NCBI GenBank assembly: GCA_965178125.1 | Contig: OZ237755.1 | Coordinates: 124,001 to 188,000, forward strand | Origin: Bilabrum cf. latius | Taxonomy: Eukaryota | DNA length: 64,000 nucleotides | Direction: 5' to 3' | Shown: in pieces, positions 1 to 64,000 of the stretch | Position numbering within the stretch: position 1 is the stretch's first letter | Layout of the letters: each line of letters opens with the position of its first letter | Notes under the pieces: generated by a model | Told to the model about the DNA's origin: nothing | The model's database searches: none | What the model saw: only the letters and a program-made list of their open reading frames with translations | Translations under genes and position numbers: made by a program

Positions 1-1912
1 GAGGAGACATGGTGCGGCAGGACAGGCCAGCGATGGACCGGGCACTAGCCCGCGGGACGGTGCCGGGTAGGATAGTCCCCGCGACCAGGTGCTGGGGGTG
101 CTCATGGCAGTCAACCGGCGGCGGCAGCTGCAGGCAGCCCTCGGTGCAGGGAGCAGCGCGGCCAAAAAGGGCGCACAGGCACTCGGGCACGAAGGCTTCA
201 GCCCCCTCGACGTTGTGCTGCTGGGCATCCTGAGCACACAGGCAGCCGCCATCATCCAGAGGGCCAGGCGTGAGGCCCGCGACAAGGCCAGGAAGCAGGC
301 GAGAGACGCAGTGCTGCACATGATCCCGAGGTTGGACCGCCCTCTGAGGCCGCTCGTGGAGGCGCTGGGGCTGCGGGCGCGACTGTAGCAGGCCGCGTGC
401 ATGGGAGAGGCTACCGCGGAGACTGAAGGGGGCACTCTTGCGGACAGTGGGTCAGGGAACAAGATGCAGGCATGGCCAGGGCACAGGGTGGGTGTGTTGT
501 CCCACAGACCGCCCCCGTTCGTGTCAGACGAGCACGAGGCCATGCAGTCGCTGCTGTCCAAGGCGCTGGAGGCGCCGCAGGCTGGGTAGGAAGGCAGCGG
601 GTCCGGCAAAGAGCCAGAGCCCGGCGAGGAGAAAGTGGGCACCTCCCTTGCACTCGTCACACGATCAGGGGCAGTCATCACCCGCATGCCCCTCCGGCTC
701 GCGCCCCGGATGATGGTCCCCGTCGCCTCCCGCGTGATGCCGCTGGACCCGTGGCTCCTTCCAGACGGTGTGGACCCCGCGCTAGCGTGGGCGGAGCAGA
801 CGCAACAGGCTGCTGCGGCGCTTGTTGGCTCTGCGGGCGCCCGTCTGTTTGTGCTAGCCGAGAGCACGGGCCGGCATGGGGGCGACCTGGGCTAGTCTCT
901 GCACGAGGCCAGGGGCTCTCAGCTGCACGCGGGCGGCGCAAAGGGAACGGGCGCACGGCGGCCCCTGGGGTCTCCTCTGCAACCGCAAGATAAGCCGTCG
1001 GGCGGGCGCGACGGGTGGACCTCTCCCTATGCCAAGGGGAAGGGACAGGGCTAGGGACAGGGCTAGGGACAGGGCGGGTCCGGGCCCCAGCAGCAGGAAG
1101 GTGGCGCAGGCTGGTCGCAAGGCAAGTCATCTGCCTTCACCGGTTAGTCACTCGGTGGCTTGGGCAGCGGGGCCACCGATGGTACCCAGGGTGGCAGCAC
1201 GTCGACCCACCCAACCGGACCATGGTCCCCTGGTGTGGGGATGTTCTGGTTCAGCAGTCTCGACAGAGACGCACAAGCCTCCTACACGAGGCAATCCGCC
1301 AGCGATGCCGCTGCCGCGCCCGATCCGGACTCGCTGCGTGCCGGGCGGGTGGTGAAGCTGATGAGTGCGATGGAGACGGGGGCAAGCGGTACGCCCACCA
1401 CGCCTGAGCAGCGGCGGCGGCGCGCCATGCAGGAGGCCATGGAGGCGCGATGGGTAGAGGCGAGGCCGCGCGGGGATCGCTGCTGGGCGCCTAGGCACTC
1501 CGTTGACTCGATCGCTGGGAGGGCAGCGTCCCGCACCGGAGAGGACCTGAGCCCGCCACCCATGACTCCCGAGCTGGCCAAGCTGGGCGACCCTGTTGGC
1601 CTGGTGGATATCCTGCACCCGCCCGAGGGCACGGTGTCGGACCGAGGGGGCAGAGGGCCTCAGCTTATCCAGCCGCGGCCCTCGGCCTCCCCATGGCACA
1701 ACCCACGAATCGACCTCGACTGCGTGACCCCGCTCGCGGTAGTGCCATGCATGGACAGCAGGGGCAGGTGCACGGCGGTGCTGGAAGTGCCGCTGCTGAC
1801 GCCCACCGAGGGTGCTCTGGAGGCCCTGGCTCTCTTTGCTCGTGTCATCGGTTCCTAGGCAGCTGCCGTGCAAGGACTCGACCTCTGTGCCAGGGCATTC
1901 AGGGGTGTGTAA
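1..1912 (+). CDS. 3' part of an uncharacterised protein (5' end outside window), read with TAG=Gln
   Basis: ORFs 89-388, 401-589, 635-895 and 1160-1858 share one frame and are separated only by TAG (68, 386, 587, 893, 1052, 1064, 1145, 1856). The first TAA/TGA is TAA at 1910-1912. No domain recognised. Confidence 0.7.
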
Positions 1913-2015
1913 ATGCAGGCAGGGCGAGAGGCCGCGTTACCATGGATGGCATTTACAGTGTGACTTAGGTTTAAATTCCAATACAAATCCGTCTATCTGA
2001 TCCGTTTAACAAGAC

Positions 2016-5000
2016 TCAATCAGCGACCATGTCGTCAGTCTGTGCCACGTTCTAAGGCGTAAGGAGGCTGTTCGCCGCAATGCCAAGATGCCCACGTTGA
2101 GCCGGCCCCGGCTCCAACACGGTCGTCGTCACTCGCAGCATGCACGCGGGGATGCCTCTCCGCGCCAGCTGACAGAGCCACGCATTCTAATTCGGCCGCA
2201 GCATGTCGCTGGCCCCTTTCACTTCTATCAGCCACACGTCCGACGGGCCACCACCCTACTAGCTAGCCCCGCCCGTCCCATGCTCGGCCCGCTCGCATGG
2301 CAGCTCCCGCGGGAAGGCCACCAGGTCTGGGAGCCCGTTTCCAAGGGTAGACATGTCGGACATCATGTGCGCCAGCAGCATCACGAGTCGTCTGCCGCCA
2401 AGGCCCGCCCCTACTCGCGCCAGGTCGCCAGAGGATACAATCCCCCACGCCAGACCGGGGCCCGTGTACCACCGCAGCCGATCGGCCTCCTATCGAATCC
2501 ACCTGAACAGCTCTCCCTGTGGCATATTCGCCAGCATGTGCAGCCGCTCAACGATCTTTAATTGCGCCGCCCCCTCCATGCAATTGCACGTGTCCCAGGA
2601 GAGCGGTAGCGCCTGGAGGTCTGTGAGCCAGTGGCTGTTCTCCCGATTCGGAAACAGCGCAGCGCTCTACACAGCAACAAAGGCCATGAGCCGCCACAGC
2701 AAATTCTCGCTGTGGAGCACCTTGTACCCCGTGCCAGCGGCTGCCGGCCTGGCAGCAGCAGCCTAAGCTCTCGAGGAAGCAGGGCCACGCTCCCGTACTA
2801 CCCACCAGTCCAGCCCAAGTCGCACGCACTGCTCGGTGTGCGGGCCCGTTACTTCCCCGAACAAATCATCCGGAGACACCACCAGCTCCAGAACCTGCGC
2901 TGCCACCTCCTCGACGCTCGCGGGCCCGTGTTGCCCAGGGTATCTCTGCCTGGCCAGCTGGCCTGCGCGGTACACTGGCTGCCGCGGCGGACTGACGAGG
3001 TGGCCAGCAGTCGCGGCAGCAGCGGTGCTTGCTGCACCAGAAGCAGATGATGCTGCCGCTGGATCAGTGGGGGATACGACGTGCACAGTCGTTCCCTGTC
3101 TGTCCCGATCTCGGTCTCCGCTCCGACTCTCCCACCCGGGCCTAACCCCGATATCAATGCGTGCGTCCCTGACTTTGTCCCAAGCACGCAAGCCCTCCGT
3201 CTGGTGCTTGGGCACGTGCTTGTTGAGAGCCAGCGTGCTGCTGCTCATGCAAGCAGACTGCGGTGAGTTGAGCGACGAGCTGGTCTCTCCGAGCCCCGCC
3301 ACAGACCCCCCTCGCCGCTTCTTCTATGGCGATGCATGCTCCTTTGCAATCACTTTCTGCATGGCCCTGGTCACGCTCACGAACGGATGCTCCATGCCGA
3401 GCAGGCTGGCCAGCCTCCATGGCACGAGCGCCTGCCCGGCAGCAGAGCTGCACAGGGCAGAGCCGTGCACGCATCGCCTCCCCATCCACGGCACGTCTCC
3501 GGGCAGGTTACCATGGAACAGCTCCTCTTCCTAACCGGGTTCCTTGCTCGCAATCACGGACCGGTAGTACTCGCGCTCCATCCTGGCGAATGCCGGGCTC
3601 TCCAGCATGGGCCCAAACCCCCCGGGCCACTGTCGATTTCCGCCCGCTCCCCTTGCCCTCCTCCGCTTGGGCCCTCCCCTCTCCCTTGACTCGTGCCTGG
3701 CATGCACCTCGGCCAAGTCCAGGAGAGACGATCGGGCTAGAGTGCCCGCCCCCGCACGGACGGTCTGTACCTGCATGCGATCCGCTTGCCTCGCGGACAG
3801 AAACCGGCCTTCCTACGCGCCGCCCCGTCCGCCTTTCGCGCGCGCTGCGAACCAGTGCAAAGCGAATGCCCGCCATGCCTCGGCTCGGTACGTATCTGGC
3901 CCTTCCCCCACGTCGTGTTTCTCGAATGCATGGGCCACAGCAATGCAGACGCGAAGCAGCGCGGTGGCTGTGCCCGCGGCCGCCTGCACGCACTCCGCCT
4001 GTTGTTCCGCAAGGTCGAGACCGTCCAGCCTCGGCACCAGCACGGCGACTGCATGCGGCTCGAAAGGCAGGCCCGGCCAGAACGCCAGTTCCTGTGCAGT
4101 TCGCACTGCCGAGTCGCTGCTGCTGTTGCTGTTGCTGCTCCCTGGGCTGGCGTGGACCGTGGAGGCCGGGGATGGCGGTCCCGCGGCACGTCCTACCCCG
4201 CGATGGGGAGGCGAGGAGCCCTCCCCCTGTGGGCCTGGGTCCCCTGGCACTGTTGGGTCTTTCCCATTCGACAATGGGGCTGCTGAAGGCGGTCGGGTGC
4301 TGGGGCTGGTATGCTGCGCTGTCAGTGCTGTATCCATCGCTTTGCTCCAGACCTCGTATGGCTCATCCTGCTGCAGGCACACGCTGGACGTGCGGGTGCT
4401 GGCCCTGTACAATGGGGACAGCAGCACTTTTACACTTTGGCCTGCGCCGCTAAATGCCGTGCCTCGTTTGTCTCTACCCCCACTGGTCGTCGAGTCTATC
4501 AAGAATCCATACCTATGCAGCAACGCGCGCCCCAGCCCAACGAACCGCGTGGGCCTCTCGGTGCTGTCCACCAGGGCACCCGCCAGCTCCTGCAGCCGAG
4601 CCATGGCCTCCGCACGGGATCGCTTGGACACTCGCTGCTGCCGTCTGCCTCCTCCCGCCGTGGCACAGGCCCCGAGGTACTCTGCCTGTCTCGCGAGCAC
4701 CAGTGCGTCCTGGGCGGCGAGGAGGGCCGCCCGGTTGGGGAACACGGAGCGGGCCCGCATTGGGGTGGGGGGAGGGGAATGTCCACTGCCAGTGGAAGGG
4801 TGTGGGCGGCTTGGGGGAGCACGGGAGGAAGCTGGTAGGGCCGCTGAGGACTCGCTCGGCTCGTCCCCTACTGCTGGTGGACGAGGCACCGAGGGGGGAA
4901 AGATGCCTGCGGATCTGCACTCCAAATCGGCCATGGGCTGGTGCAAGCACGCGGGGCACGGGCGCTATCCGAGTGCAAGCGCAGCGCATCGCTCCAGGAG

Positions 5001-5972
5001 CCTCATGCAGGGCTAGAACACGACCCGGAGCCGATCGGGCCCGCGCATTCGCTTGAAGCGGAGCAGCTGCTCGCCAAGCAGTGAGCGAGCAGCAGCTGGC
5101 CCGCTTGTTCCACTGTCGTCCCCGCTGACGGCACGTGAGGCCGCGCCAGATCTCGCAGGATGCATGCGTGTCAACCTTTTTGATCCGATGGACTCCGAAT
5201 TGTCAGAATCCTGCAGCAGAGCCAGCACTGCAGCGCCTGTCGGGCTCACGGCTCCCAGCGAGGCGAGGTGGGACAGCCACGCAGGCACCTGCTGCCGACC
5301 TGCCACGGAGAAGATGCGCCGTTGTGCACCTGCTTGAGTGTCGTGGCCATGGGCTGTTGTCGTATACTAGGGCTCTGTCTCGTCCGAGTCGCTCAGCTCA
5401 TCATCTCTATGCTCTGCTTCGGAATTGGCTGCATGCACAGTGAGTGCCGACCGCTCGCCTGGAGCAAATAGCCATGGCCACTCAACCGCACACAGGGCAT
5501 TAGGTATGAATGATCTCTACCCCTCGCTCTGCGGGTATGCTCCAGAGGCCCTATGCAAGTGAGAGCTGAATGCAACTGCAACCGCTTTGTGGCACGAGTG
5601 CTGCTTCGATTGCACGATAGCAACCAACAAGTCTCGCTCGTCCCTTGCGAGGAGTTTTCGAAGATCAGATGCAAGGCACAACGGCAGCACCTGGTCAACC
5701 AGCGATGGCACGTGGCTGCTGCGTGCTGAACTAGGGTTAGCGCTGAATCCTGACAGCAGTACGCGAGAGAGAAGCGCCCTCCGGCCAGCTCTGCAGGCAA
5801 AATCCCGCTTAATGACAAGTCTAAGGCGTTTTTGGTCTATTATTGCTAGCCCCAGATTGTCCGGCCGACAGCCTAGAGCAACATGCTTGAGACCATCATC
5901 GATTTTTTGGTTGGCGTTCAAAAAACCCTGGGCACATGCCTCAAGCGTAATTTCCTCTGGTTCGGCATGCAT
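2016..5972 (-). CDS. FAN1: FAN1-like structure-specific nuclease with C-terminal VRR-NUC domain (~1,318 aa, TAG=Gln)
   Basis: ORFs 5517-5972, 5013-5306, 3813-4946, 3531-3776 and 2763-3302 are co-frame and split only by TAG. The C-terminus reads GNGLPDLVAF...WLIEVKGASDMLRPN(TAG)NAWLCQLARRG, the PD-(D/E)xK VRR-NUC signature. Ends TGA at 2016-2018. The start codon is uncertain. Confidence 0.75.
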
Positions 5973-6177
5973 GTTGCCTTAGTTCGTCTGCGCTCCACAC
6001 TAACTACCACTACAGTAAAGTGTCATCGCGCAATACGGGTCATTAAGCGGCTCGACTTCGTGCTGGTTGTGGTTGAAGTTCGCATGCCGCGCCATCATGG
6101 ATCGGCGATCCCGGTTCCGGTTGGCAGCTAAACCAAAAGCAATCGTACATAGAAGCGCCCGACTCATTTTCAATTGA

Positions 6178-7833
6178 TCAATCGCTCGGCAGCGCATACC
6201 CCAGCACGACAAACATGGCTATCCCGATTGACAGCGCAAGCCACCTCGCTTTCGGGTCACCTCGCCTGCTGGCCCCGCCTCCTTCTTCCCCGCCCCCGCT
6301 GCCAGGCCCATCCACCTGCAGCTCTTCCCTCAGGATCTCCACCACTGCCACGTACACGAAAGTCCCCTGCGCAAGCCCCGTGGACACGAGGTCCACCCAG
6401 GGGCTCTGCAGCCCCGCCTTGAGCACGATCCCCAGCAGGATGCCCACCGGGGTCATGGCCGCGAACACGAGCACCAGCCTGGCACCCGCGCCGTACCCCA
6501 CCGCGTTGGCCCTCAAGCTGGTGCCCATGGCGAAGGCAGCGAAGCCCTTGTGAGCGGAGACAGCCATCCCGATGGCCACCGCCGCCGCCACCTCTGTCTG
6601 CACCCCGATGCCCACCCCCTCCAGCAGGCTGTGCACCGACAGGGATAGCACCAGCACCAGCGCCGTCCCGAGCCCACCCTGCCCTGTGGCCAGCGCGGCC
6701 GCTGCCGCCCCGTGGCTATGCCCATGACCCCCGGCCTGGGGGGGAGAGGACAGCCCCTGCATCGCCTGCAAGTGCACGTGCCCGTCACCCACGGGGCTAC
6801 CCATTTCGCGCTGGGGAAAATCTCCGGCAGCGGATGGATCCACCACAACCAGAGGGTCCTGGGACCCCCTTCTGGAGCCCTGCATCAAGGGCAGGCTGTC
6901 CTGGCTGTCCTATCGACCGCTGCCAGAGTGCGGGGGGGTGCCGCCTTGCTTGTCGCCTTGCTTGTCGCCTTGCTCGTCGCTGCTTCTGCTGCTGCTGCTG
7001 CCCTAGTCGTCTGTTTCACTGCCGTGACCCGCACCATCCTCATGCCCGTCGGAGGAGTCGGACAGCTCGATCATGGCCGGCTAAGATGCATCGCTGGACT
7101 TGTGTCGGGCCTGAGCTGTGTGCACTGCAACAATGGCGGCGCCAGCCCCTCCCCCTCCTAGTCCTACTCCCCCGTTCCCCGACCTCGATTGAATGCCACT
7201 ATGCAATCTCGACGGTGTTGACCTGCCTGACTTTGGTCCACCGTGCGACTCACCGCCCTCCATCGAGCCCCCGCTGCCCCTGCTACCAGTAACCTGGCGA
7301 CCTGCCTCCCCTACCGGTGCACCCACCGCCACCTCGGACCCACAGGCGGTCATTCCATCCAGCGCAAATGGCAGCAGCAGCCCCAGCAGAGGGAACAAGA
7401 AGGGGAGCGGCTGGTCCTCAATCCCCAGGGCCAGTGCGCTCCGGACCACGTCCGGGAGGAAGTGCGCGTATCCTGCCGAGAGCAAGACACCTCCCGCGAA
7501 GCAGTTGGCCAGGCTGATCCAAGCTGGATCCACGAGCGGGGCCTGCTCATGCTACAGGGCGTCGACAGTGCCTTCGTTCCTACTTTCGGACGAACGGCGA
7601 TCTTCCCGTTCATCTTGCAGGTGCTGAAACCTCCCACGGGAGCTGGCATGCTGCGCACCCGTCTTTTCTCTGCCGCAGCCGCAACAAGGTGTCTAACAAA
7701 CGGGCTCTCCCGCCAGCCAGTACGGCAACAGGCCACCAACGGCCCCCAGCACCAAAGTCAGAATCGCGCACAAGCACGCTACAACGATCGCTGCAACCGA
7801 CTGGTGTTCATCGTTTCCATTTTGTGCCAGCAT
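6178..7833 (-). CDS. ZIP-family zinc/iron permease (~551 aa, TAG=Gln)
   Basis: ORFs 7693-7911 (TM1, VLGAVGGLLP), 7081-7533 (ANCFAGGVLLSAGYAHFLPD) and 6178-6888 (HGHSHG loop, LSVHSLLEGVGIG, AHKGFAAF, GTFVYVA) are co-frame, with 5 TAGs in the joined frame. TGA stop. Start taken at ATG 7831-7833. Confidence 0.9.
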
Positions 7834-8103
7834 CCGATCATACCGTGACAAGTGGCCCGCATCAATTGCTTCGTTACACCCGAAGCACGATTCCATCCGA
7901 ATCAAAATCAATGTTTACTGAGCTACAGCTGTGCGGTACTGGGGCGCAAGTCAGGCGATTCAGAACGGCATCAATAATAGGCAAGCGATCCTACAATTTA
8001 AGCCTTTCCACTGCGAAATTGTGCTATTTGTGCTCTGTGCAGCACAATGACCTCGTCACGGACCGCTGCCGGTTGCGCCACTCGTCACTGCAACGCACCG
8101 TTC

Positions 8104-8373
8104 TTAGTCAACCTTTTTCTGCCTTCTGCCTGTTTCCTAGACCTAAATTGCCTTAATCAATAATCTAGTTTTGTTCTATTTGGCCACTATTTTGTCAATA
8201 TCCGCTTGGAACCACATGTACAGTCCAACAATCGCTGCTGTGCAGCACAAGAACACGCAGGACAGCGCAACAACCATTTCAATCTCCGTTTTAGTGGTTT
8301 CATCTGACCCAGCAGCAAGATTCGAAATGATGTAATTGTATATGAGAGCTATGGCATCCTGTAGAGATTCCAT
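8104..8373 (-). CDS. small single-pass membrane protein (~89 aa, TAG=Gln)
   Basis: ATG-initiated ORF with a hydrophobic segment (MVVALSCVFLCCTAAIVGLYMWF). Reading through TAGs at 8176, 8143 and 8137 adds a basic tail ending ...RRQKKVD before TAA at 8104-8106. Confidence 0.55.
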
Positions 8374-8962
8374 GGTCTCAGTTGTGCGTCGCCAGAGGCT
8401 ATGTGCGCTGCTATTTCGGAAAGTACACGTTACTTTGCGTCACCCAGTGTGACCCAGAGATCTTGTGGCCTGCGCCACAGGCACTCGCATTTGCACGGGC
8501 TGGCTGCGCCAATGACGTGCCGGCCCAAGGTGCGGGTTGCGATGAGCCCCGGCTCCTTCACGGCCTCCGGCACACGATGGCACCCCCTTTGGATAGCGGC
8601 CGCTGCCACTGACAGCGGCCAACGCTGTGGCCCCAACGACACTCGGTTGCATGCTAGTGGGACCGGACGAGATACGGCGCGAAGAAGCTGCCTTTGTTAC
8701 GACTAGGTAGTGCCTTTGCAAACCGGACCCTGTGACAGTCGGGGTGGGCGCCCGCACCTACCCGATCGGGGATCGGGGTGAGCACGGTATGACGGACCCC
8801 ATTCATAATGAGGCCAAGCATGAAGCGTGAGGCCGAATGTCTCGGGGTGACGCCGCGCTGTCCGGCCCATGGTTTCACCGAGTTGCACTGCCTTGCCAGT
8901 GCTGCACCTTGGCGAAAATCCTTGCTTTGCCCGACACAACTGTTCCCTCAAACGCCAGCCAG

Positions 8963-11900
8963 ATGGCTTCAGCGCTTGTTTGGGGAGTTGGAGGGTGGTT
9001 TCATGGCACTATGGATGCCTCTGTCAACAGCGCCACCCTGTCTGGGGCACTGGACGTGGTTGCAGTTCGGCATGCCGATGGCAGCATTCGATGCACCCCG
9101 TTTCATGCCCGTTTCGGTAGGCTGCAGGTGAGATTGCTATTGAACTTGCCTTGCGGTTACTGCGCCACCCAATGCTACCCATCTCTGTCGGCGCGGTCGA
9201 ATCGGAGAAGAGGATCGGCTCCGATACTTTCTTTGGCATTTCGTGCGACCACCGCAGGCGTACTACATAAACCAGCAGAGTGTCGATTTAATCGTGAATT
9301 CTAAGTCGGTGCCATTTGATCTAGTGGTGAGTGGCTTCTTCCCTTAAGAACAATTCATCCGGCTGGCGTCCCAGCTATTGGCTCGTGCCAAACCTGCCCC
9401 CCTCGCTTAAATTTCTTTGCAGCTTGGAGACGATGGCGTTGTATTCTTTCGCAACCGAGTGTTCCACCGGCCCGACGCACTGCTGGCTGCTGCCGCGGGC
9501 AGGAAAGCTCGCAACGACGCCGGTAGTACGGACGGAGCCGACGCTTCCGACACTGCATCCCTTTCCTCTGCAGATGCGCATTCTGTGGCCACCGCCCCAG
9601 GCATGTTTGCTCGGGGCTCCGTTGGTGCCAGCCGCTCCTTGCGCTCCGGGCGCTCCTCCGAAGCATCGAGGCGCGCGCGAGCAGGCCGTGTAGGGGCCCA
9701 GCGCGGCCCCCCCCACCGTGGGGACGCCCCCCCCCAGGGAGAGCAGCGCTCCCAGTCCCTGAGCACGCGCCACGGCGAGCTGCCCCAGGCCCTCCTGAGC
9801 CCGGGCTCCTCCCCTCAGCCAGCGCACGCCGACTCGGTGCCGGTGCCTGCCATGGCGGGCATGCCCTGCGCCCAGGCTCGGGGGCGAGACGGCCTCGAGT
9901 CTCCCGCGCGACTGGTCAGCGGGCCCGTCCCCTCCCTGGGAAAGGCAGAGGGTGCAGTGCACGGCGCTGCAGATCGGCCCCCGCTGGCCGGCCTCACGCA
10001 CGGCGGGTCCCACCTCCACGCTGCATCGGCGGCGCAGCGACAGGCCCTCCGCTCCTCTCTGGCGGCTCGCCGAGACGTGGAGGCGCGTTTGATGAGCGCT
10101 CGGCGCGCCCTGAGTCTCGAGGCGGGGCTTGGGGGCGGTCTGAGCGACGGGGAGGCCGAGACGTCCAGGCGGAGGCAGGAGCGGCGGAGGGCGGGACGGG
10201 AGGGCAGGGCCGGGGCAGGGGGCAGAAGGAGGAGGAGAAGAAGGAGACAAGCGGCCGGGAGAGCCGCGGATCCCTCGAGCGGGGCAGGCGCGGGTGCTGG
10301 TGTGGGTGAAGGAGGTGGGACTCTTGGCTTGTGTGCTGGCGGTCGCAGCCACGGAGCCGTCACCCCTGAAGGGGCAGAGGCAGAGGCAGAGGCAGAGGCT
10401 CGCGCGCGGCTGGGGGACGACGCAGGGACCTACCGGGGGCATGCGCCGTCCGGAGCCGTCACAGCCGACCGAAGTGCTCTGGGTGCTCGCGCCTCGGTCG
10501 GCGGGGGCGGGGGTACGACTCTTGGCGGAAACACAGCGGGTGCCCACGGCTCGCCCCACTCAATCCCGGCCCATGCGACGCACGGCTCGGCCCAGACGGC
10601 AGGCATGGCCAGCAGCGCCGTGCTGGGAAACACGAGGCCGGAGGGGGGTCCCTCTGGCCTGCACCAGCGGGTGCCACTGCACCGCGTTCCCTCGGGCTCC
10701 TACGCGGATGGTGACGAGGAGGGCGCTGCGTTCCTGTCCTCGCTGGATGTGGCCGCGCTGGAGGCGGTGGCGGCAGCGGGTCTGGGCAGCGCTGCCATGG
10801 AGGCGGCCGCTGAGGAGGGCGTGCTTCTGGATGGGCCCGCGGGCAGGCGTCCTTCCGTGACTCTTGGAAGGGGGACCTGGCGGGGGACGAGGCTCCGGCG
10901 GCACTCCACGGGTACTCCTGCGGCGGTGAGTTCGCTGGCCCTCGAGGCGCTCGCCCGGGAGGGAAGGGACAGGTGTTCCATTGGGGCGAGGCGGGCTGCG
11001 ATGATGAGGCGGATGGCCAAGCAGCGGAGGGGCAGAGGAGGGAGAGGGGGAGGGAGAGGGGGCAGCGCGCAGGGCAGACGACGGCAGGGAGCCGTGCTGG
11101 CTGGCGCAGTGTGCCTGGGTAATTTCTACGAAGGCTCGGGCGAGGGCGATGAGGGCGAGGTGCCGGGTGGCAGCAGCAGTCCTGTGATGGGAGTCACTGG
11201 GGAGCTGTCGGGTCGGTCTATCTCGCACAATACGGCCCTGCCAAGGGTATTTCCTGGCGGTGGCAGCTCAACTGCAGGCAGCCAAGCAGCCGCCAACGGG
11301 AACCCTGACATCCCCACCCGCGATGTGGGCCAGTGGGTGGGCAGCCACGCAGTGCGCGACCTGCAGGTGGAGGTGCTGCCCGCGCCCCCGGAGGACGGCC
11401 GCCGTGGGAGCGCGAGCGGCGATCCCCTGCCCGATGGGCTCTCTCGCGGTGCCGAGGGCGGGCCGGGCGTACGGGGCAGCGAGGGGGGGGGCGGCAGCAG
11501 CGGGGTGGCGGATCTGCTTCGGCTCGAGGCTCTGGCCCAGCTGAGCGACGACGGGACGTGCCTGTCCCTTCTCCGGGAGAACGAGGTGCTGGTTGTGCCC
11601 CGCGTGCCACTGCCGCAGCGGGCAGGGGGGGAGGAGCCCGTGGGCGTTGGTGAGGCATCGATCGGAGACCTGTGCGCGGGTCTTGGTCACGTGCTAGAGG
11701 CGGCCCACAGGTCCAGCGGGGGCCAGGGTGCTCTGGCGGCGAAGGAGCAGGCGGAGCAGGAGCAGGCGCTGGCCAAGGGGTGCCTCCGGCTGTCGGACTC
11801 GGCCTCCCTGACCAAGGAACGCGCGGGGCTCTCGCCCATGGGCGTCATGCAGGGCCGGACCAAGATCATAGGGGCGGTGGCGAGTCTCTGCGGGCCTGCT

Positions 11901-51043: not shown

Positions 51044-54000
51044 TTACAACGAGGGAGGTGCACCCCCTCTGGTAAGCTGCGCAATCAGCGCAGCGGTGCG
51101 CGGCGAGGCATCCTGCGGCACGCCACCTGCCTGTTGCCCCGGCGGGGGCACGTAGATGGGGGGAGGGGCATTGGGGGCACCCGCCGAAGCACCCGGCGCC
51201 GGTGCCGGTGCCGGTGCGGGTGCAGGTGCCGGTGCAGGTGCCGGTGCGGGTGCGGGTGCGGGTGCACCAAAGAAAGCGCTGAACATGCTGGGGGCCGGTG
51301 CTGGGGCCGGGGCCGGGGCTGGTGCAGGTGCAGGTGCAGGTGCAGGTGCAGGCGCAGGTGCAGATTGGGTCGCAGGCGCCGCGGCGGCCTGCTTGTCCTG
51401 CTGCTACAGCTGCGCGATGAGAGCAGCAGTCCGGGGGGAAACGTCGCCTCCCCCCGACCCTGAGCCGGAACCCCCACTAGACCTATGCTGCTGGTAGCCG
51501 GGCGGGGGCGCGTGCACAGACAAGCCCGGTGACGACCCCGAGGCTGCGGGCGGAGCCGCGCTGGGGTATGTGGCACCAAACCCCGCGGCTCCGCCTGCTG
51601 CTGCCACCCCGCTCCCCCCGCCCGGTCCTGCCACCCCAGACCCGGGTGCCCCTGCCCCTGCCCCTGCCCCAGCACTCCCCTAAGGCCCCGAGGGCCCAGC
51701 TCCCATCTGCAGGATCTGCTCCCTGCGCTCGATGTCCCGCGAGTACTTGAAATCCGCCGCGCCCCGCCGCAGCCTCTCGGCCTGCTGCCTCACATCCGAG
51801 TAGAAGGTTTGCCCGTCCCGCACCACGGACCGCAGCTTCTCGAAGCGGTCCACGCCTTCCGCCAGCCGCTGCAACGCCTCTCCTCGCGCTCGCGTCCTGG
51901 CGTCCGTGGCTCGCAGCTCGTCGTACCTCTTTGCCAGCGCCTCTATCCTCTCCAGCATGCCGCCGTGGGCCCGCATGCTGGCTTGCAGCGCCCTGCGTTG
52001 GGGCTCCCTTGCCTCCGAGAGCTCCAGCATGGCACGGTCCTTGGCCTCCTCGCCCAAAGAGCCGCCCACCGCCTTGCCAAGCATGATGGTCGTGGCTTTG
52101 CTCTTGGGACACTTGCGGTACACGTCGTCAACGAGCTGCTCCCACTTGCCCTGCACCGCCGACAGCTCCTTGAGCGCCTCCTTGAGCTGCTCCCGCTCCG
52201 CTGCTCCCCCGGCCCCGCCCGTGGGTGCGGACGGCACCTCGGCGGACACCTCGGCGCGACTCCTGCACAGCCCCACGATCTCGGGCCGCAGCCGCTGCAG
52301 CTCCCGCTGCACCTGCGCATCGTTCCCGGCGGCTTGACGCAGGAACCCCCTCAGCCGGTCCACCTCGGCTGCCATGGGCGCCCCCACCTCAGCGGGGGCC
52401 GCGCACCTCCACCTGGGCCCGAACTGCTTGGCCAGCGTGTCGTGGTCCCGCCGGTCCGCCTCGAGGCTCTCCACCGCCCCCTCGATGTCACGACCCGCCT
52501 GTGAGCCCTTCTCATGGCTCTCCCGCAGAAGGCGGTCCAGCTCCTCGGCGCCCCCCTGGATGCGGACCCCTTCCACGCGCCTCCAAAGGTCGTCAGGGAT
52601 GCCCTCCGTCTGCTCGGCCGCGTCGATGGACCCAGGCAGCCCCAGCTCCTGCAGCTTGTCCTGCGCACGCTGCAGCTCCGTCGCGGTCTCCTCCTTAAGC
52701 CTCTTGACCTCCTGCTTCACGGCCTCCTCGTGCTCGTCCACAGCAGCGGCCACCAGGCGCGGCACCAGGGAACCAAAGATGTCTCGGATCTCGGGGGCAC
52801 CCCCCTCCCCCGCTGATGCCCCGGAGGACGCCCCGGAAGCGGCCTCCCCATCGGTGGAAGGCGGACCCACTGCATCGGCCGCAAAGGGGCGCCCGGTCAC
52901 GGGATGGTTGCCCTCTCCCCGCAGCATCGCGTCGATCTTGTCGGGCGCCGTGGGCCGGGCCATGATAGTGGCCGCGACGGGAGGGGTGGCATCGAAGGAG
53001 GGCACCACCTCCATGTACACGTCCACGTTCTTCCTGTGGATGGCAGCCCTCAGCTCCTGCGCCTAGGCCTTGAGCGCCGCCAGCCCGGAGTCGTCGAACT
53101 TCTCCCGCCCCTTCTTCTCGGTTTCCTCCGCCAGCCGCTGGGCAAACCCGATGATCTGCAGGCACCTGTCCAGCACCGCGAGCGCGGCACCGAATCCCTT
53201 GAGCACCTCTGGGTTCTTGGCGTTCTCGTGGATGCCTTGGGCGTGCCGGAACAGGGCGCCCGCCTGGAACGAGGTCTCCTGAAACTTGAGGTACTCGGTC
53301 CACGGATAATCCCTGCTGATTTCGGACATGTCCTCCTTGCGCATGCACGCGGCCGCCTGCCCGTACAGGTTGCCTGCACCCATGGCCAGCTGAGCAAGCT
53401 TCTGCTGCGGCATGTTGTTCTTGAAGGCCATCTGGTAGAAGCAGGCCTGCGCTTGCGCCTGCATGAGGAGAGAGAGCAGCTGCAGCCCCTCCGGGGTCAT
53501 GTCCACCGTGGGCCGGCCCGTGAACTTGTTGGAGATCTGGGTGCGCAGGTAGCTGAACAGGCCCGAGGCGAGCATCATGTGCTTGGCGCAGTTCTTGATC
53601 CCATCGTTGGAGCTCCTGTCCGTGCGGATGCCCCTCACGGACTCGAGGGCCCCCAGGTTGAAAAGGATGCACGCCGTCTCGTACGTCCAAGAGTACTCGG
53701 CGTAGCTGCGGGACGGCAGGAACGCGTCTGTCCACTGAAACTTTATGCGCAGGCCGCCCGAAGACGTGACCGGTAGCTTTTCTTTGCACAAATATATCTG
53801 CTGCAAATACCTGCGGGACGATCGAACAGCGAGGTGTTTGAAAGGACCTGGGTGGGCAAGCCGCAGCACGACGTGCGTTGAACAGTGTCAGATAACGATG
53901 GGCTCGGCGAGGGCACTATCCACCCGTTTGCGATTCCAATAAAAAGCTAGATGGGGCGTACAGGCACAGTTCTGCGCACTCACCCGATCAGGGTAGATCT

Positions 54001-55206: not shown

Positions 55207-56706
55207 TCAAGCCTGGGTATAGAATAAGTCTGCTCGCATGGAGAACAGGTACCTCTCGTTGCCATGGGCCGGCTGCTTGTTGTAGGTCAGCAGCACGGAC
55301 GCGTCCGGCACCCGTCCGTCGGTCTTGCTGCTCTCTGGCGGCACCGGGATGATCGACGTGTAGCTCATCGTCTCGCGGGGGGAGAAAGTCGTCGAGTTCA
55401 CGTTGGGGGTAAACCGAAGAGTCTCGTTGCTCTCGCCCCTGTTGTGCCAGTAGGACAGCGAAAACTCCTCGAACGCATCCAGCCCCGACCCCGACCCCGC
55501 CGCCGCCCCTGCCCCTGCTTGTGCACCCCCCTCCTCCCCCCCCTCCTCCCCCCCCCCCCCCTCCTCCTCCTCCTGCTAGTAGTAGGGCCCGCTGCCAGCC
55601 GCCCGGAGCAGCGCGGTGCCACTCCAGTCCACCCACAGCAGCACGTCAGACGTCCCGTGATCCCGCATGCGTCCCCCGGACAGCAGCATGGGAGCAGCAG
55701 GCGGGGCTCCGCTCCCTCCAGCGGCTACACCTCGACCTCCCGCGCGCGCTGCTGGCACCGGTGGGGCGGCGGGCAGCAGCCGCGGCCGCGCGCACCCGAG
55801 CCCTTCCAGCACCCTTGGCTTGCTCCACGTGTGCCCCCTGTCCGTCGACACCACCACCCGGTAGTCTCGGTAGGGGTGCGTCTGCGGGCCGTCCCCCGCG
55901 TCCCATCGGATGACCATCGCGATGGCGGGGTCGGCCTGGGGGGCGGCGCCGCGCAGCCCGGTTCCGCTTCCGGGCAAGGGGATGAGCGCGAGGTCGTTCT
56001 CGTTGGGTCCCTCCTGCGCGTCTGGGTTGGCGCTGGCGTTGGCCACCACGGCCCTGAAGTGCCACTGCAGGCCACCGTCCGTCGAGCCGAAGGCCAGCAC
56101 AGAGGTGGCCCACTCGCCGTTGCCGCCCCAGAACACGATCACAGACATGACGCACTCCGTCCCCGGGCTGTCGCTGGGCCCGAAGCACACGAGACCCGTG
56201 CCCTGCAGCCGGATGGGACAACCCCCGAAGTGGTGGTCGCACCACACGTCGTGCGGGAGACCGAGCATCGCGGCTCGGGTGCTGTTGTCGCGGGCAAATG
56301 ATACGAACGGTGGGCTGCTGAGCCCCGTCCAGCTCTATGTGTACGTACCATTGAACACATGCTGGTGCTTTGACGCATTTGCGGTGTGCAGAGCATCCCC
56401 ATAGTCGCGAAGCTTGCCTGTGGCGGTCGGGTACAGCCTTGCAGCCCCTTGTTTTGGTACGCCCGGCGGAGCTGGGCTCCACGTAGCCCCCGCGTCTCCT
56501 GATATATACAACTCGCTTTCCCCATCGAGCATAACGGTGCTGGATGCTTGTCCCAGGCCAGCCAGCGCGTGGCCGCGAGCCGCATCCGTGCCCGATCCAA
56601 CGAGAGTCGGCGCGTGGAACACCACCGAACCGGGATTCTATCCCATGGACAGCGGCACATTGGAAGCAATGGCGCAATACGCTGCTAATTTGAGTACGGA
56701 ATTCAT
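55207..56706 (-). CDS. probable secreted BNR/Asp-box (sialidase-like beta-propeller) protein (~499 aa, TAG=Gln)
   Basis: Three Asp-box motifs (SGDAGATW, STDGGLQW, STDRGHTW) and a signal-peptide-like N-terminus (MNSVLKLAAYCAIAS). ORFs 56335-56625, 55576-56268 and 55207-55401 are co-frame, with TAGs at 56638, 56335, 55576. TGA stop. Confidence 0.75.
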
Positions 56707-56841: not shown

Positions 56842-59205
56842 ATGTCTCTTATTGCGTAGCTACTCGGTCCACCAAACAAGCCACTGCCTATCCTGGTTCA
56901 TGACGTGATCCACATGAGACTTTCTATGGCGAGCTTCAGCGCTGCAGTGCAGCGAGAGCGGGCAGCAGGCCGTAGCGTTGATGTACGAATTGGTGGAAGG
57001 ACAGCATTGCAGACAGCAGCCGATTGCGGGAGCGCGGAGATTGCGCAGGTGCTGCTTGACGTGGGCGGCGCCGGTGCTAATGAAACGGACGCGCAAGGCA
57101 GGCGCACGCCTCTTCATTTCGCCTGCGATGCGCGCTCATCTGAAGTGTGCTGCCTACTCATTGCAGCAGGAGCCAATCCGAATGCGACGGACCGCAGGCA
57201 CTGGTCACCGCTGCATTGTGCCGCTCGCAGGGGCCTGCTAGACGCGGCACTACTGCTGCTCCTGTGTGGCGCGGACGCCGAGGCCCAAGACGAGGGCGGG
57301 CGCACGCCCTTGCACTACGTTTGCATGTTTGCCGCGCCCGCGCAGCCTGCCCTGGCGCAGCTGCTCGTCCGCGGCGCCGGTGCCTCGCCCAGCGCATCGG
57401 ACCACCTGGGCCTCTCGCCGCTGCACCACGCCGCGCAATCCGGGTCAGTTCCGCTGTGCGCGGCGCTGCTGGCCCTGGGAGCAGATCCTCTGGCCCGCAG
57501 CCGCACAGGTTTCACGCCCGCTGACGTGGCTCGCCTCGGCGGACGCACAGCCTTGGCAGATGCGCTGCAGTGCGCTGCAGGCTGGCTCGGCTCGCTGGTG
57601 GAAGAGGTCCGGCGGGGGGATGTGGAGCCCGTGCCCGAGTGCGCAGAAGCGCACCGACTGTGGGTGACCCGGCATCGGAAAGGGGCTGGCACTGGCGTGG
57701 GCCCGGGGATGTCCTCCCGAGCGGCTGGCTCGAGCACGGCGGCGGCAGCGCAGAGGCAGACGCAGACGCAGAGACAGGGCGTGTCGCTGCGGGGAGCTGC
57801 AGGTGGTAAGAATCCGAGTGCAGTGGCAGCAGGTCGGTCCATGCCTCGGCTGCGGCGCGCCGCCGGCCGGATCGGTGTGACGAGTCTTCTGGGCTGCACC
57901 GATGAGTCTGGCCCCCTGAAGGAGGGTGGGGGTGCACTGCATGGTGGAGGCGGGGATGGCCCGCAAACGGACCGCTCTGGTCCCAGTGGTCCTGCCGCCG
58001 CGCCCGCTCGACAGCTCAGGCGGTCTCGTGCTGCACAGGGCTGGCTGGATGCTGCGGCCCAGATGCTCCTGCAGGCCCTAGACGACCCCAGCTCTGACTC
58101 GGAGGACGAGGGCGAGGACAAGGGCGAGGACGGGGGTGAAAACGTGGAGGCAGACGCCTTGGTACAGGCGGGCGAGCTGCAGAGTGGGGCGGGAGGCAGC
58201 ATGCAGTCTCTAGCAATGGGCCAGCCCGAGGGCCGCGGTGGGCATTGGCATGGGCATGGGCATGGGCGTTCGTCCACAACTCAGCCTCTGGCTGGTGCCG
58301 GTGCCGGTGCCGGTGCTGGTGCTCTTCTGTCCTCCTCCCTGGAAGAGACAGCGAGTCTTGGTGTGAGCGAGGGAGCGGCGACCAGCCATAGAGGGCCTGT
58401 CTCCTCTTCATCCTCCTCCGCATCTGGGCATGGGCGCGCGGCAGGGCGCAAGTGCTCGCTGGGGACACACGTGGAAATCGAGGCTGGCGCTGGATAGCAA
58501 GCAGGCCCAGATGCGTAGATCGATGCGGAGACGCATGCGAACTAGGGCGCGCCTGTGGCGGGTGCCGTGCATTAGGGGGATGCGCGGGTCCGTTACCCGC
58601 TCGGTGGTGCTGGTGCCACAAGTGTCGCCAGGGAACTGCAGTCGCGCGCGGCTCCATCCTCGCTGGGCCAAGCCCCCACGCCTCGTCGCCTCGTGGAGCT
58701 GGCGGGCGAGCTGGAGACGGAGCACGGCGCGGGCATGGCGGCCGGCGGCAGCAGCCGCAAGGGCTGCGCACATTGTGTGCCCTGGGGCAAGATGGCGGAT
58801 GCACTCGGGGAGGACGGCAAGGGGCTGGGGCTGGAGGGTGACGAGCGCAAGCTGGCGGTGTGGCGGGGGCGCCTGCCGTCGGCCCTTGAGCTGGACGCGC
58901 TGAGCACCGCGCTGAGGAGGAGAAGGCGGGCAGCAGGGCTTTGGCCGGCGGGGGACAGAGACAACGGGGCGGCAGGGGTGGGGGCCGGTGCTGCCGCGCG
59001 TGGTGTGGGTGCCGGGGGTGCCGTGCAAGCGGCAGCAGGAGCAGGGGCTGCTCGCGCTGCCGAGTCTACCAGCCTGGTGGAAGGCCAGGCACCGGCTTGC
59101 TCGATGTCTGTCAGTTCGATCGGAGCCGATGGGCTGGCCGAGCTCGTGGTCAGGCTGGCGGGCCTGCCGGAGGGTGCGGCTGCGAACGTGTACGGGTTCG
59201 TGTGA
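56842..59205 (+). CDS. ankyrin-repeat protein with low-complexity C-terminal region (~787 aa, TAG=Gln)
   Basis: About 6 ankyrin repeats (GRTALQTAA, RRTPLHFAC, WSPLHCAA, GRTPLHY, GLSPLHHAA, GFTPADVA). TAGs at 56857, 58495, 58516, 58543, 58573 link to ORF 58693-59205. TGA stop. Confidence 0.82.
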
Positions 59206-59334: not shown

Positions 59335-61818
59335 TCAGCTAGACCCCGGGCCTAGTCCCTTCTTGCGCCTCGGGTCCTCGTGCGCCCCGTGGCCCTCCTT
59401 GGATCCACGCAGCTGCTCGAGAGCGTGCGGCAGCACCCGCGCCAAGATCTCCACCGTCTCGCGCACTGCCTTTGGCTTCCCGGGACAGTTGATGACCAGG
59501 GCGTGCCCAAGCGTGCCGGCGATTCCGCGGGAGAGCACGCAGGCCGGCAGCTTGGGCAGCATCGCGTGGTGCACTGCCTGGATCAGGCCGTCTGCCCGCC
59601 GCTCCAGCACCCCCGCCGTGGCCTCCGGAGTCACGTCCCGAGGAGAAAACCCCGTGCCTCCCGTGGTCAGCACGAGCGCGGCCGCGGAGGAATCTCCTCG
59701 CGCCGCCTATGCCCGTATTGCGCCGCGGATGGCAGACTCGTCGTCGGGCGCCACATGCACGGAGGGCTCGTCGACCAGCCTTACCCGCCCAGGTGTCTCA
59801 AGCAGATCGCGCACCGCTGCCACACCAGTGGGCCCCGAGACGTCTTCAGCTTGGCCTCTGAAGCACGTGTCGCTGACCGTGATCACGCTGAGTCGGAGGG
59901 GTACCGGCGGCTTGCTCTTCTGCTTGTGCGTGTGCGTGTGCGTGTGCTTGTGCGTGTGCTCCGCGGCCTTGCGCTCGCCTGTGACAGGGCCAGACCCAGC
60001 CACAGCGGCCCAGGAGGAGCCTGCCGCCCGACTCGCACTCGCACTAGATTTCCCCGAGGCAGCAGGATCAGCAGCAGGATCAGCAGCAGGATCAGCGGCA
60101 AGGGGAGGGGGAGGAGGAACAGCTCCGCATGCACCGCTGCACCCGAAAGATGCCCTAGCACTCTCAACCTGGGCGGCGGGTTGGAAGGAAGAAGGTGCAG
60201 CCTGCTCTCTTGCTCCCTCGATGTCGCCGATCTAGATGCATTGCACGATAGTGCCAGCCGGAAGCACCGCCGGGCCGTCCGCCAGAATCTCCCCACCCGG
60301 CATCCCTTGCTCTCCGATGGAGGGCACCCGGATCAGCACGTTTGCACCGAGGAACGAGGCAGGGCGCGAGGAGGCTTGTCTCCCTGTGGGTGTCACACAA
60401 ACGGTGCCATCGCCGCCGTGCCGGGCGATACCTCTCTGGAAATCGGTCCGCAGAGAGTCCCTCCTCACAGGCACCTGCAGCCGGGCCACCAGTCGCGCGG
60501 GACTCGCGCGGGAGGCCTCGATCCCCTGCATACGGCGGAGGGCGGGCTCCACGAGCAGATGGAAGGTGGCGAGGGCGGAGGCAGGGTTCCCGGGGAGGCC
60601 GAAGAACATGCACTGGTGCACAGACGGTGGTTCTGGTGAAGCGGTCTATGTTTTGCCAGCGGCATCACCACGGTCGGCTGCCTCCTACTCTGGGTCGGCT
60701 GCTCCCGTGCCGCGGGGGCTGTCAGCGGCAGTCGCTCCTGACCGGGCTGTGAGTGGATATGAACTAGTTGCACCTGCCACGCTGCTTGCCGGCGGTCTTG
60801 CCACCGGTGCAGCTGACCGAACCGTGGAAGCGACCGCCACGGTGGTGGGCTTGCCCGGCTTCATCCTCAGCCTCCCGAAGAGCACTCTGCCGCCGGGCAG
60901 CTGCTCCATGCTCGGTTTCACGTGGTCGTGCATGCCCATGCTCACTCCGCCGGTGGTGATGACTGCATCGCATTGCGTCGCGGCGCGTGACAGAGCAGCT
61001 CGCGTGGCAGGCCCGTCGTCGGGGAGCACGCCCATGTCCAGGGCCCGAGCACCTGCTCGAGCGCACAGGGCGAGCAAGGAAGGGCGATTCGCATCGTAAA
61101 CCGTCGTCCCCTCGGAGCTCGGCTCCATCCCGATCGATTCAGCTGCAGTATCCCCGCCCCCAACTGCGTGCTCGCTGCTCCCGCGGGGCAAAGAGCCGGG
61201 CAGCACCGCCAGCTCTTGGCCCGTGCTGAACACGCCCACTACCGCCTAGCGACGAACTGAAACCGAGCGCACCCCAGCGGCAGACAGCAGCCCTAACTCA
61301 GCAGGTCCTATCAGCTCACCTGGCTGCATAACGGCCGCCCCGGTCGGGATGTCCGAGCCGATTGGACGAATCTTGTCGCCAGGCTGGTGCGTGCCCCGCA
61401 GCTCCACAACGTCACCTGACGACTGCGCAGCGCCTTCGTGCGGCGCTGAGTTCTCTACCATAACAACACAGTCGGCCCCGTCTGGGACGGGGGCGCCAGT
61501 TGTTATGTAGCAGCAGTGGCCATCCTTCAACACGGGCGGTGCGCCGTCGCCTGCTGCAACCCCCCCTTGCACAGGCAGAACCCCGGGCAAGTCTACGCTT
61601 TTTGCGGCATACCCATCTACAATTGATGCTCGAAAAGGTGGCAAATTGACTGTAGCAATGGCTGGCTTGCAAGCGCACCGACCGACGCTTTGGTGCAGTT
61701 GCACCTAGGCGACATCAAGCGGGCGGGCCGCTGCAAGCACCGATTCAATGGCAGCATCAATCTCGACCATTGGATACGGACTACTCCTGATAAGGCTACC
61801 GTCTTGTCGCACTGCCAT
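59335..61818 (-). CDS. CNX1: molybdopterin biosynthesis Cnx1/gephyrin-family protein, MoeA(E)-MogA(G) fusion (~827 aa, TAG=Gln)
   Basis: E-domain motifs ([68 protein letters not shown]) precede G-domain motifs ([38 protein letters not shown]). One frame with 6 TAGs. TGA stop. Confidence 0.92.
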
Positions 61819-61978
61819 GGCTGGATATGGGACCTTTCGTGATTGCGACTGCACAATCGTCGAGCCGCGATCATCATCACCAAAGACTGCCAGTGGGTCC
61901 GCCGAGCTTGCACGCTGTACAGATTGGAAGAACTTGCCAGACCGGCCATACAGCTCCGGTTGCTATCACTGATTACGC

Positions 61979-64000
61979 ATGCTAGCGAAGAAGCTGGTTA
62001 AGAATGGCTTGGATCCGCTGTTGGGCGCAAGGAACCGTTTGTTGCGAGGCGTACTCGGCACTCTAGGGTTTCCCACCCCTCACGAGCTGTACAGAGGCTA
62101 TGACAAGCTGCCTATGAATCGATCGTACCTCGCCTAGTACATGCAATCGAACCGAATATCGCTGGCAGACAACCAAGGGGAAGCTTGGCTCGCATTCAAC
62201 TCGAGGGTATCGGTCGGGAAAGGGTCCCTTGGGTCAGTCGTGGTCGATCTGCGGCCGCTCGGTAACGCGTAGCGCGATTTCCAAATCATTCTTGGGTCCC
62301 TCAAGCGCGGGCTTGCCGAGTTGCAGCGCGGCGGTCGCCTCGTGGTCGTGTCGTCCGGCGCACCAGGCTCGCCGGCAGGTGCGCTGGGAGACACCTGGAC
62401 GGCAGCGGTGCACGGGGCGGTTCTGAGCCTGCACTAGGAAGTCGGCAAGCATGGGATTGGCATCAATCACGTGGTTGACGCCGGGGGGGCAGCACCATTC
62501 CCGGAGGAGAGCGACTCGGAAGGCCAGGAGGAGGAGGAGGAGAGCGATGGGGGGAGCGAGGAGGAGGAGGGGAGCGATGAGGAGGGCGATGATAAGGGCG
62601 AGGAGGGCGCCGCTGCCGCTGACGAGCGACTCGAAGGCGTGGACAGCAATGAGGGTGAGGGCAGCGGTGCGGGCGGCATGCAGGCGCGCGTGGATCTCAA
62701 CCTAAAGTTCGACTCGATGCCGCTGGATGACAACGTGTGGGAGGCCGCTGCCTTCTTGGCCTCGCCCGCATCTGCGTTCGTCACGGGCCAGCAGCTTGTG
62801 GTGAACGCCGACCGAAGCAATGGCTGGGCAGGTGGTGATGTGGGCTATGAGTCAGAGGATGGCGTTGACGCGCTGCAGTATTCAACAGCGGCCCACCGAC
62901 TGCTGCGAAGGTCTGCCATCAGAGCAGAGGTGATGCTGGCGAAGGAGATGTAGGGTGAGACAGAGGGCAGAGGGGTTACCCCATACGGCCGCGAGCAAGA
63001 CTGGCTCAAGAAGAGTGACGAAATTGGTGCTGCGATCGAACGCATGAAGGGCCAGCTGCATGAGATGGGAGGTACGAACAAGACCGACATCACGGCTCCC
63101 ACTCTGCGCCCACAGGAGGGAAGCATTGCACTCGTCACGGGGGCCGCCAGGGGAATCGGCCGTGCGATCGCCCACCGGCTCGCCACTGAGGGCGCCATTG
63201 TGCTGTGCGTGGACGTGCCAGGGAACACGGAGGAGCTGAGCAAAGTGGCGGCCGAGGTAGGGGGGCTGGGCCTCGCCCTCGACATCACCCGGGACGACGC
63301 CCCCGGTGTGCTGCGCAGGGCAGTGGCGGAGTTTTCGTCCCCTCTGCGGAATGGCTTGGCCATGGACCACTCCGAGCCTTTCATGCGTGTTGCCAGGGGC
63401 GAGGACGCCGGGGCCGACCCGTGGGAGTCGCCGAGGCGGTCCGCGAGTGAGATCCTCGAGCTGCCAGAGTCCCGCGGCGCGATGGTGGACGAGTCCGACC
63501 TGGCCTCCTACTCGACCGACACTAACAAGCTGGTCACGTCGGCAGAGGGCGGGCTTGACGTTTTGGTGCACAACGCAGGTGTGACGAGGGACCGATCCCT
63601 GGGGAACATGTCCGAGGCGGAGGCGCGGGCGGTCTTCGCAGTCAACCTGGAGGCGATCCTTCGGATCGAGGAGGAGATCGGGGCTCGACAGCTGGTGGAC
63701 GGGAGCGGCGCCCCGGTGCTGGCGGATGGGGCTCGGGTGGTACTCCTGTCAAGCATCGTGGGTCGCGCGGGGGCCGTCGGGCAGTGCGCGTACGCGGCAA
63801 CGAAGAACGCCGTGGCGGCCTACGCGAGCGAGATGGGGCTCAAGAAAGCTGTGGCCGACTTGGGAGCGACGGTGAATGCGGTTGCTCCAGGATTCATCGA
63901 GACAGACATGACCCAAAAAATCCCAGTGGTGGGACGGGAGGTTGCCCGGAGGATGAGCTCGTTCCGGTAGGGGGGCTTGCCGTGGGATGTGGCGAGTGCC
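61979..64000 (+). CDS. FabG4-type (high-molecular-weight) 3-oxoacyl reductase / SDR, 3' end beyond window (TAG=Gln)
   Basis: SDR motifs ALVTGAARGIG, VHNAGVTRD, YAATK and NAVAPGFIETDMT, plus RRMSSFR*GGLPWDVA. A degenerate N-terminal domain (LGFPTP, VVVD, GRLVVV, LSLH*EVG) resembles FabG4. TAGs at 62135, 62270, 62435, 62951, 63968. Confidence 0.82.

Follow-up and report, generated by a model that had tools for sequence, protein, structure and literature searches.

The stretch analyzed here, hereafter the window, comprises 64,000 nucleotides of Bilabrum cf. latius (assembly GCA_965178125.1, contig OZ237755.1, positions 124,001 to 188,000 of the forward strand), and the question addressed is what the triplet TAG means in its protein-coding genes. 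An earlier annotation made from the letters alone, the original prediction, had proposed a non-standard nuclear genetic code in which UAG is read as glutamine and UAA and UGA remain stops. The G+C content varies between 57 and 69% across 4-kb steps of the 64-kb window, and its genes are typically eukaryotic, lie on both strands and are almost free of introns, three GT..AG introns being supported at 18237-19007. A prokaryotic or phage origin is ruled out by the presence of kinesin, lipin, ALIX, ALG6/8 and GT..AG introns. The genes and features are the following:

2..1912, plus strand: open reading frame (ORF) of unknown family, open at the window start; 8 in-frame TAG; TAA stop at 1910-1912
2016..5972, minus strand: FAN1-like nuclease with a VRR_NUC domain at amino acids (aa) 1157-1282; 14 in-frame TAG, 4 of them in the domain; TGA end
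6178..7911, minus strand: ZIP metal transporter; 5 in-frame TAG; TGA end
9417..14792, plus strand: lipin with LNS2 domain; 3 in-frame TAG; TGA end
15032..17353, minus strand: kinesin-2; TAG in frame at aa 164, which lies in the motor domain, and at 495 and 552; TGA end
18237..19007, plus strand: three GT..AG introns in the 5' part of the giant adhesion gene; joints 18237>18336, 18391>18577 and 18617>19007
18950..33126, plus strand: giant cadherin/TIG/Sushi membrane protein; 19 in-frame TAG without that at 20377; TGA end
34902..36701, plus strand: ALG6/ALG8 glucosyltransferase; 1 in-frame TAG, 11 codons ahead of the TAA stop
36979..50301, minus strand: giant IQ-motif repeat protein of 4440 aa; 20 in-frame TAG; TAA end
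51044..53869, minus strand: ALIX/BRO1; 3 in-frame TAG; TAA end
55207..56706, minus strand: ORF with a weak BNR/Asp-box match under the Pfam cut-off; 3 in-frame TAG; TGA end
56842..59205, plus strand: ankyrin-repeat protein; 5 in-frame TAG; TGA end
59335..61854, minus strand: gephyrin/Cnx1-type MoeA-MogA fusion; 6 in-frame TAG; TGA end
61979..64000, plus strand: FabG4-like two-domain short-chain dehydrogenase (SDR), open at the window end; 5 in-frame TAG

Taken together, the 13 gene models comprise 18,127 codons, among which TAG stands in frame 96 times and neither TAA nor TGA occurs internally even once. Over the same stretches the other two frames, summed, hold 210 TAG, 75 TAA and 695 TGA, so that TAG is as common in frame as off frame, whereas TAA and TGA are fully excluded. 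Under the standard code the genes are split into pieces, and when TAG is taken as sense they become single ORFs of 4254, 4440, 1791, 1318 aa and so on. Under this reading the longest stop-to-stop ORFs measure 4458 and 4265 aa instead of 1311 aa; a switch of TAA to sense leaves the ORF lengths nearly unchanged, and a switch of TGA yields no ORF above 1462 aa. Among the glutamine-type codons of the models (96 TAG, 581 CAG and 147 CAA), TAG accounts for about one in eight. Not all of the 96 need be translated. The TAG at 20377 probably supplies the AG at the 3' splice site of a predicted 77-nt intron (20303-20379). Judged from the frames and the GT..AG ends only, removal of this intron probably links ORF 18983-20305 with ORF 20380-33126 in the giant adhesion gene. 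Some N-terminal TAGs (e.g. 56857) may also precede the true start codon. A realistic count is therefore about 90-95, close to the roughly 100 in-frame TAGs on both strands that had been estimated by hand. The complete lack of internal TAA and TGA likewise matches the original prediction.

The reading frame is continuous also at the level of protein domains. Pfam domains extend across TAGs, and HMMER alignments to the structures of KIF1A, gephyrin and FabG4 in the PDB cross TAGs with no gap and no change of frame. A PDB search with the C-terminal 494 aa of the FAN1-like protein gave no match, and the 4 TAGs of its domain are thus unscored.

Public sequencing runs were compared over window positions 1-20000. 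Run X1 is DNA-like, with a flat depth of 8-20 and the region covered by two long contigs. Runs X5-X7 are RNA-like: their pieces fit gene limits (e.g. 14909-17363 for the kinesin ORF 15032-17353), and their depth varies from gene to gene, FAN1 having 0 and the maximum being 234. X5-X7 contain three GT..AG joints that X1 lacks; all three joints of the giant adhesion gene occur in X5 contigs and two of them in X6. None of the listed runs is recorded as RNA, and it is from the joints together with the depth pattern that we infer X5-X7 to be RNA. All 19 TAGs of four genes lie inside X5 pieces with no other letter: 8 in the unknown-family ORF (pieces 1-1059 and 1049-1932, both identical to the window), 5 in ZIP (piece 6321-8373, 0 other letters), 3 in lipin (11073-12607 and 12730-14848) and 3 in kinesin-2 (14909-17363, 0 other letters). 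The 14 TAGs of FAN1 lie outside the RNA-like pieces. Moreover, no sequence difference listed for positions 1-20000 coincides with a TAG. The original prediction had named CAG in transcripts, or TAG being spliced out, as outcomes that would speak against it; in the transcript-like contigs, whose GT..AG joints show them to be spliced, UAG is instead retained, neither edited nor spliced out, at 19 of the 19 covered sites.

With regard to termination, TGA closes eight of the 12 complete models and TAA the other four, and the 13th leaves the window. The claim that complete models end in TAA or TGA thus stands, whereas the addition that they never end in TAG is true by construction, since TAG was read through when the models were made. 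UGA acts as a stop and never as a sense codon: it is absent inside the models against 695 off-frame occurrences, it closes 8 of the 12, and the TGA stop of kinesin-2 is found at the same codon in the window and in a metagenomic relative (contig L002, see below). Under an ambiguous code, as in Condylostoma, Parduczia and Blastocrithidia, UAG would encode glutamine inside genes and still terminate near the 3' ends of mRNAs. We consider such a code improbable in this organism, even if two features of the window would suit it. The first is the shortness of the 3' untranslated regions, given that the transcript-like contigs finish 20-123 nt past the annotated stops. The second, which also weighs against UAG being an ordinary sense codon throughout, is that in 3 of the 12 complete models the last TAG stands 11-17 codons before the TAA or TGA stop (17 in the unknown-family ORF, 11 in FAN1 and 11 in ALG6/8). 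However, given the overall TAG density about 1.1 near-terminal TAGs of this kind are expected by chance, which is not significantly fewer than 3, and old UAG stops that are now read through would give an identical pattern, so that the near-terminal TAGs fit such relics and continued termination at UAG equally. No model, all of them reading through TAG, requires a TAG stop, and the last TAG of the SDR, 9 codons from the window end, is uninformative on termination. For Iotanema, every one of the 81 UAGs considered as candidate terminators was interpreted as a sense codon (PMC5304391).

A second alternative holds that both UAR codons (UAA and UAG) encode glutamine, as in the ciliate-type code (NCBI table 6), and that TAA is merely rare through the high GC content. 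In its favor, UAA and UAG are usually reassigned jointly according to the cited sections of two studies (PMC5304391, PMC11687900), and TAA is indeed the rarest stop triplet in the window DNA. Nevertheless, if TAA stood to TAG as CAA stands to CAG (147:581), about 24 in-frame TAA would be expected, and off frame there are about 37 per frame; none is seen in 18,127 codons, and for this reason the window does not conform to the ciliate-type code. In addition, the four models that end in TAA each have a convergent neighbour gene or a transcript end close behind. Within the window UAA serves as a stop without coding for an amino acid, and joint reassignment of the two codons is very unlikely. Internal TAA at glutamine positions, which had been named as evidence to the contrary, was looked for within the window and amounts to zero, and the claim that UAA and UGA remain stops is borne out, as these are the only terminators seen in the window models. 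The individual TAA triplets cited in its support were all recovered, at 1910 and 36699 on the plus strand and at 8104, 36979 and 51044 on the minus strand. That at 8104, however, closes only an unverified ORF of 111 codons (8104-8439, minus strand), which lies inside the transcript-like contig 6321-8373 of the ZIP locus and could be a gene, an upstream ORF or an exon.

The identity of the amino acid was approached through relatives, whose proteins are present in the public collection only as fragments, several per contig, which is the outcome expected of a standard-code gene caller applied to TAG-containing genes. Eight such fragments (P0001, P0121-P0124, P0126, P0129 and P0130), 76-94% identical to the window proteins, cover 12 window TAG sites and carry Q at 8 of them, E at 2, A at 1 and L at 1. 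With a substitution table made from 3,576 other aligned positions in the same alignments, glutamine reached a log10 likelihood of -7.65, compared with -18.44 for glutamate as the runner-up among residues and -15.38 under a background model. Left out of this set were P0125 (54% identity, with A and S at its two sites), the bacterial cadherins P0127 and P0128 and all secondary BLAST segments, which represent paralogous repeats. Pyrrolysine at UAG is ruled out, as the relatives carry glutamine.

At the DNA level, two contigs of one Joint Genome Institute (JGI) metagenome, L001 and L002, hold the kinesin orthologue of another relative, with 83-85% protein identity. The window TAGs at aa 164, 495 and 552 are found opposite TCG, CAG and CAA in these contigs, which have in-frame TAGs of their own at 133, opposite window CGC, and at 180, 248, 573 and 663, all opposite CAG. 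TAG is thus paired with CAG or CAA in 6 of the 8 pairs. In the 110 codons that follow TAG 663, synonymous differences number 42 and amino-acid differences 10 (9/5/49 by codon position); this coding-type divergence implies that the sequence past the TAG evolves as coding. Further DNA searches were negative: six neighbouring window ORFs gave no tblastn hit in L001/L002, a tRNA scan of these two contigs found none, and a kinesin search of genome contigs revealed no relative. L001 carries an intron at 781-949 (starting GTAAGA) in its kinesin orthologue where the window gene has none, which is an intron gain or loss between close relatives.

Conserved columns and internal repeats provide further indications. 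The TAG at aa 664 of the SDR (63968) occupies a column with Q in 146 of 150 homologue representatives and also in the FabG4 structures, and the TAG at aa 2222 of the IQ protein is aligned with Q of the subsequent 12-aa repeat copies, of which Tandem Repeats Finder (TRF) counts 13. One might still suppose that UAG specifies another residue, such as glutamate or leucine, or that it is passed by near-cognate readthrough without any fixed meaning, as the E (2), L (1) and A (1) at the 12 sites of the relatives and the prevalence of K or hydrophobic residues in some distant columns could suggest. The likelihood for Q exceeds that for E by about 10.8 log10 units, however, and both the DNA pairs (6 of 8) and the SDR column at aa 664 (146 of 150) point to glutamine, while up to 20 TAGs per ORF exclude readthrough of low efficiency. 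Natural readthrough amounts to a few percent per site. We therefore regard this alternative as highly improbable, and the claim that UAG is read as glutamine is upheld by the relatives, by the DNA pairs and by the conserved SDR column. That the TAGs are artefacts (errors of assembly or sequencing, pseudogenes, or sites of U-to-C RNA editing to CAG) is a negligible prospect with no observation in its favor, given that four runs from three studies agree in sequence over the covered pieces, that the TAG-bearing genes are under purifying selection, that relatives from other datasets have in-frame TAGs of their own and that TAG is retained in transcript-like contigs.

The window thus very probably belongs to the nuclear genome of a stramenopile with high GC content and few introns, which uses UAG as an ordinary sense codon for glutamine and UAA and UGA as its sole terminators, a pattern that we take to be NCBI table 15. 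Besides the near-terminal TAGs, a number of observations count against this interpretation. Glutamine is found at 8 of 12 TAG sites in the relatives, whereas CAG sites stay Q at 112 of 123 in the same sequences, which means that TAG sites are less conserved. Among distant homologues, the column at aa 153 of the SDR (TAG at 62435, N-terminal domain) is K in 125 of 150, reflecting either a real K-to-Q replacement or relaxed constraint, that at aa 164 of kinesin-2 is V in 55 of 59, and that at aa 53 of the SDR is hydrophobic. These columns, together with the lower conservation relative to CAG, imply that TAG is found mostly at tolerant positions. Inference in the manner of Codetta, which had been proposed as a check, placed Q first over the 7 usable distant window columns, although the preference is weak (+0.13 for Q, -1.72 for H). 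Nine fragments of relatives end within the homologous region, opposite Q (6), S (2) or TAG (1) of the window, which counts in favor of the interpretation, although their stops were placed from the protein ends and not from DNA. The run-labelling software only guesses 'RNA?' for X5-X7 and calls X5 'probably DNA'. Finally, the genome was sampled over 64 kb only.

Mechanistically, UAG would be decoded by a tRNA-Gln with the anticodon CUA, which reads UAG but not UAA and might have arisen by a single mutation from tRNA-Gln(CUG). The eRF1 would no longer recognise UAG efficiently and would still recognise UAA and UGA, and genes formerly ended by UAG would extend to the next UAA or UGA. The tRNA scan of the window found none, the Rfam scan at gathering thresholds gave 0 matches, and the 64-kb window contains no eRF1.

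Codes in which UAG alone has become glutamine are described, in the sections cited here, for the fornicate Iotanema spirale, the ciliate Protocruzia tuzeti and two phyllopharyngean ciliate lineages (PMC5304391, PMC11687900). The same sources list UAG alone as leucine in the uncultured rhizarian exLh and in some ciliates, and as serine in Scotinosphaera, and one of them states that CUA is the only anticodon to read UAG but not UAA and that it lies one change from tRNA-Gln(CUG) (PMC5304391). The window resembles Iotanema, Protocruzia and the phyllopharyngeans, so far as these texts describe them, in that UAG is sense for glutamine, UAA and UGA are kept as stops, and tRNA-Gln(CUA) is predicted (PMC5304391, PMC11687900). 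It differs from them in its host, which is GC-rich and is placed among the stramenopiles near Cafeteria by a one-gene tree, and not among metamonads or ciliates. With exLh and Scotinosphaera, on the account given in the same passages, it has in common that UAG alone is reassigned, UAA is kept and the two UAR codons are uncoupled (PMC5304391, PMC11687900). The residue is another one, however: L, as in exLh, is found at 1 of 12 sites of the relatives, and S, as in Scotinosphaera, only in L001 (TCG opposite window TAG 164). The UAR-to-glutamine codes of many ciliates, hexamitin diplomonads, Ulvophyceae, Streblomastix and Amoeboaphelidium (table 6) likewise read UAG as glutamine, presumably via tRNA-Gln(CUA), whereas UAA in the window is not sense (0 seen, about 24 expected) and ends four models. 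As in Condylostoma, Parduczia and Blastocrithidia, a stop codon is translated inside genes; in contrast to these organisms, the window models, which were built reading through TAG, require no termination at UAG, although the three near-terminal TAGs would fit it, and UGA and UAA are never internal.

The organism was placed by means of its kinesin-2. The best named match is that of Cafeteria roenbergensis (48% identity), after which come sequences of labyrinthulomycetes, oomycetes and ochrophytes. In a maximum-likelihood tree of 38 kinesin-2 rows, the window sequence and P0001 form the sister group (Shimodaira-Hasegawa-like approximate likelihood ratio test, SH-aLRT, 99) of Cafeteria and four unnamed sequences, and both clades lie inside the stramenopile sequences of this one-gene tree. 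The five kinesins of the sister clade are of full length (738-786 aa) under the standard code. Since these orthologues are intact, the tree suggests that the code change arose after the split from the Cafeteria-containing clade. P0009, a kinesin labelled Symbiodinium sp. KB8, branches in the stramenopile clade beside the window group, away from the alveolates, and may represent contamination of the Symbiodinium sp. KB8 assembly.

Judged from their own sequences, at least two other related organisms use the same code, which would hence be a property of a small clade. The in-frame TAGs of these relatives stand at different positions, as expected if TAG and CAG interchange within the clade by C/T transitions. 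In kinesin-2 the TAG positions are not common to the window (164, 495, 552), L001/L002 (133, 180, 248, 573, 663) and P0001, which stops opposite 589; such turnover points to a free and ongoing exchange of CAG and TAG. In the giant adhesion gene, the TAG at aa 868 is common to the window and a relative.

Within the literature library covered by a full-text search, there was no report of a nuclear code change in any stramenopile. We have high confidence in the code itself (UAG alone to glutamine), a known kind in a new lineage, and moderate confidence that it is the first code change in stramenopiles. The fuller proposal, that it is the first nuclear code change of the stramenopiles, represents an independent origin of UAG-only reassignment to glutamine and is common to a small clade of GC-rich bicosoecid-related flagellates (the organisms of the window, P0001 and L001/L002), appears somewhat probable to us, though far from certain. 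The independent origin that the original prediction had envisaged is consistent with the one-gene kinesin-2 tree, with the intact standard-code orthologues of the sister clade and with the literature search, and its support is limited to these.

Changes of the nuclear code are rare, and those that split UAG from UAA are rarer still. The window would add a further independent case on a new branch of the supergroups, in a GC-rich genome and with close relatives for which sequence data exist. It may therefore allow the evolution of eRF1 and tRNA-Gln under reassignment of UAG alone to be compared in nature, and the role that codon rarity plays in reassignment to be tested. There is also a practical side, since standard gene callers fragment the proteins of this organism, and annotation, phylogenomics and contamination screens would mishandle it unless table 15 is used.

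Several additional features of the data deserve mention. Runs with three different organism codes, from three studies, match the window exactly, with 0 other letters over their listed long pieces, and the window organism may be a co-cultured or contaminating protist in the data of other organisms. At 16266-16580, short pieces of other contigs resemble the kinesin motor region with several differences (e.g. A>T at 16299) and odd joints; they most likely stem from kinesin paralogues rather than from variants of the locus. The gene of the giant IQ-motif protein contains two tandem arrays, one at 44342-47823 with 30.5 copies of a 114-bp unit at 99% identity, each encoding a 38-aa IQ-motif repeat, and one at 43169-43637 with 13 copies (TRF) of a 36-bp unit that encodes KAEQEAREQAR(V/L). 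The near identity of the copies suggests either recent expansion or collapse of the assembly in these arrays.

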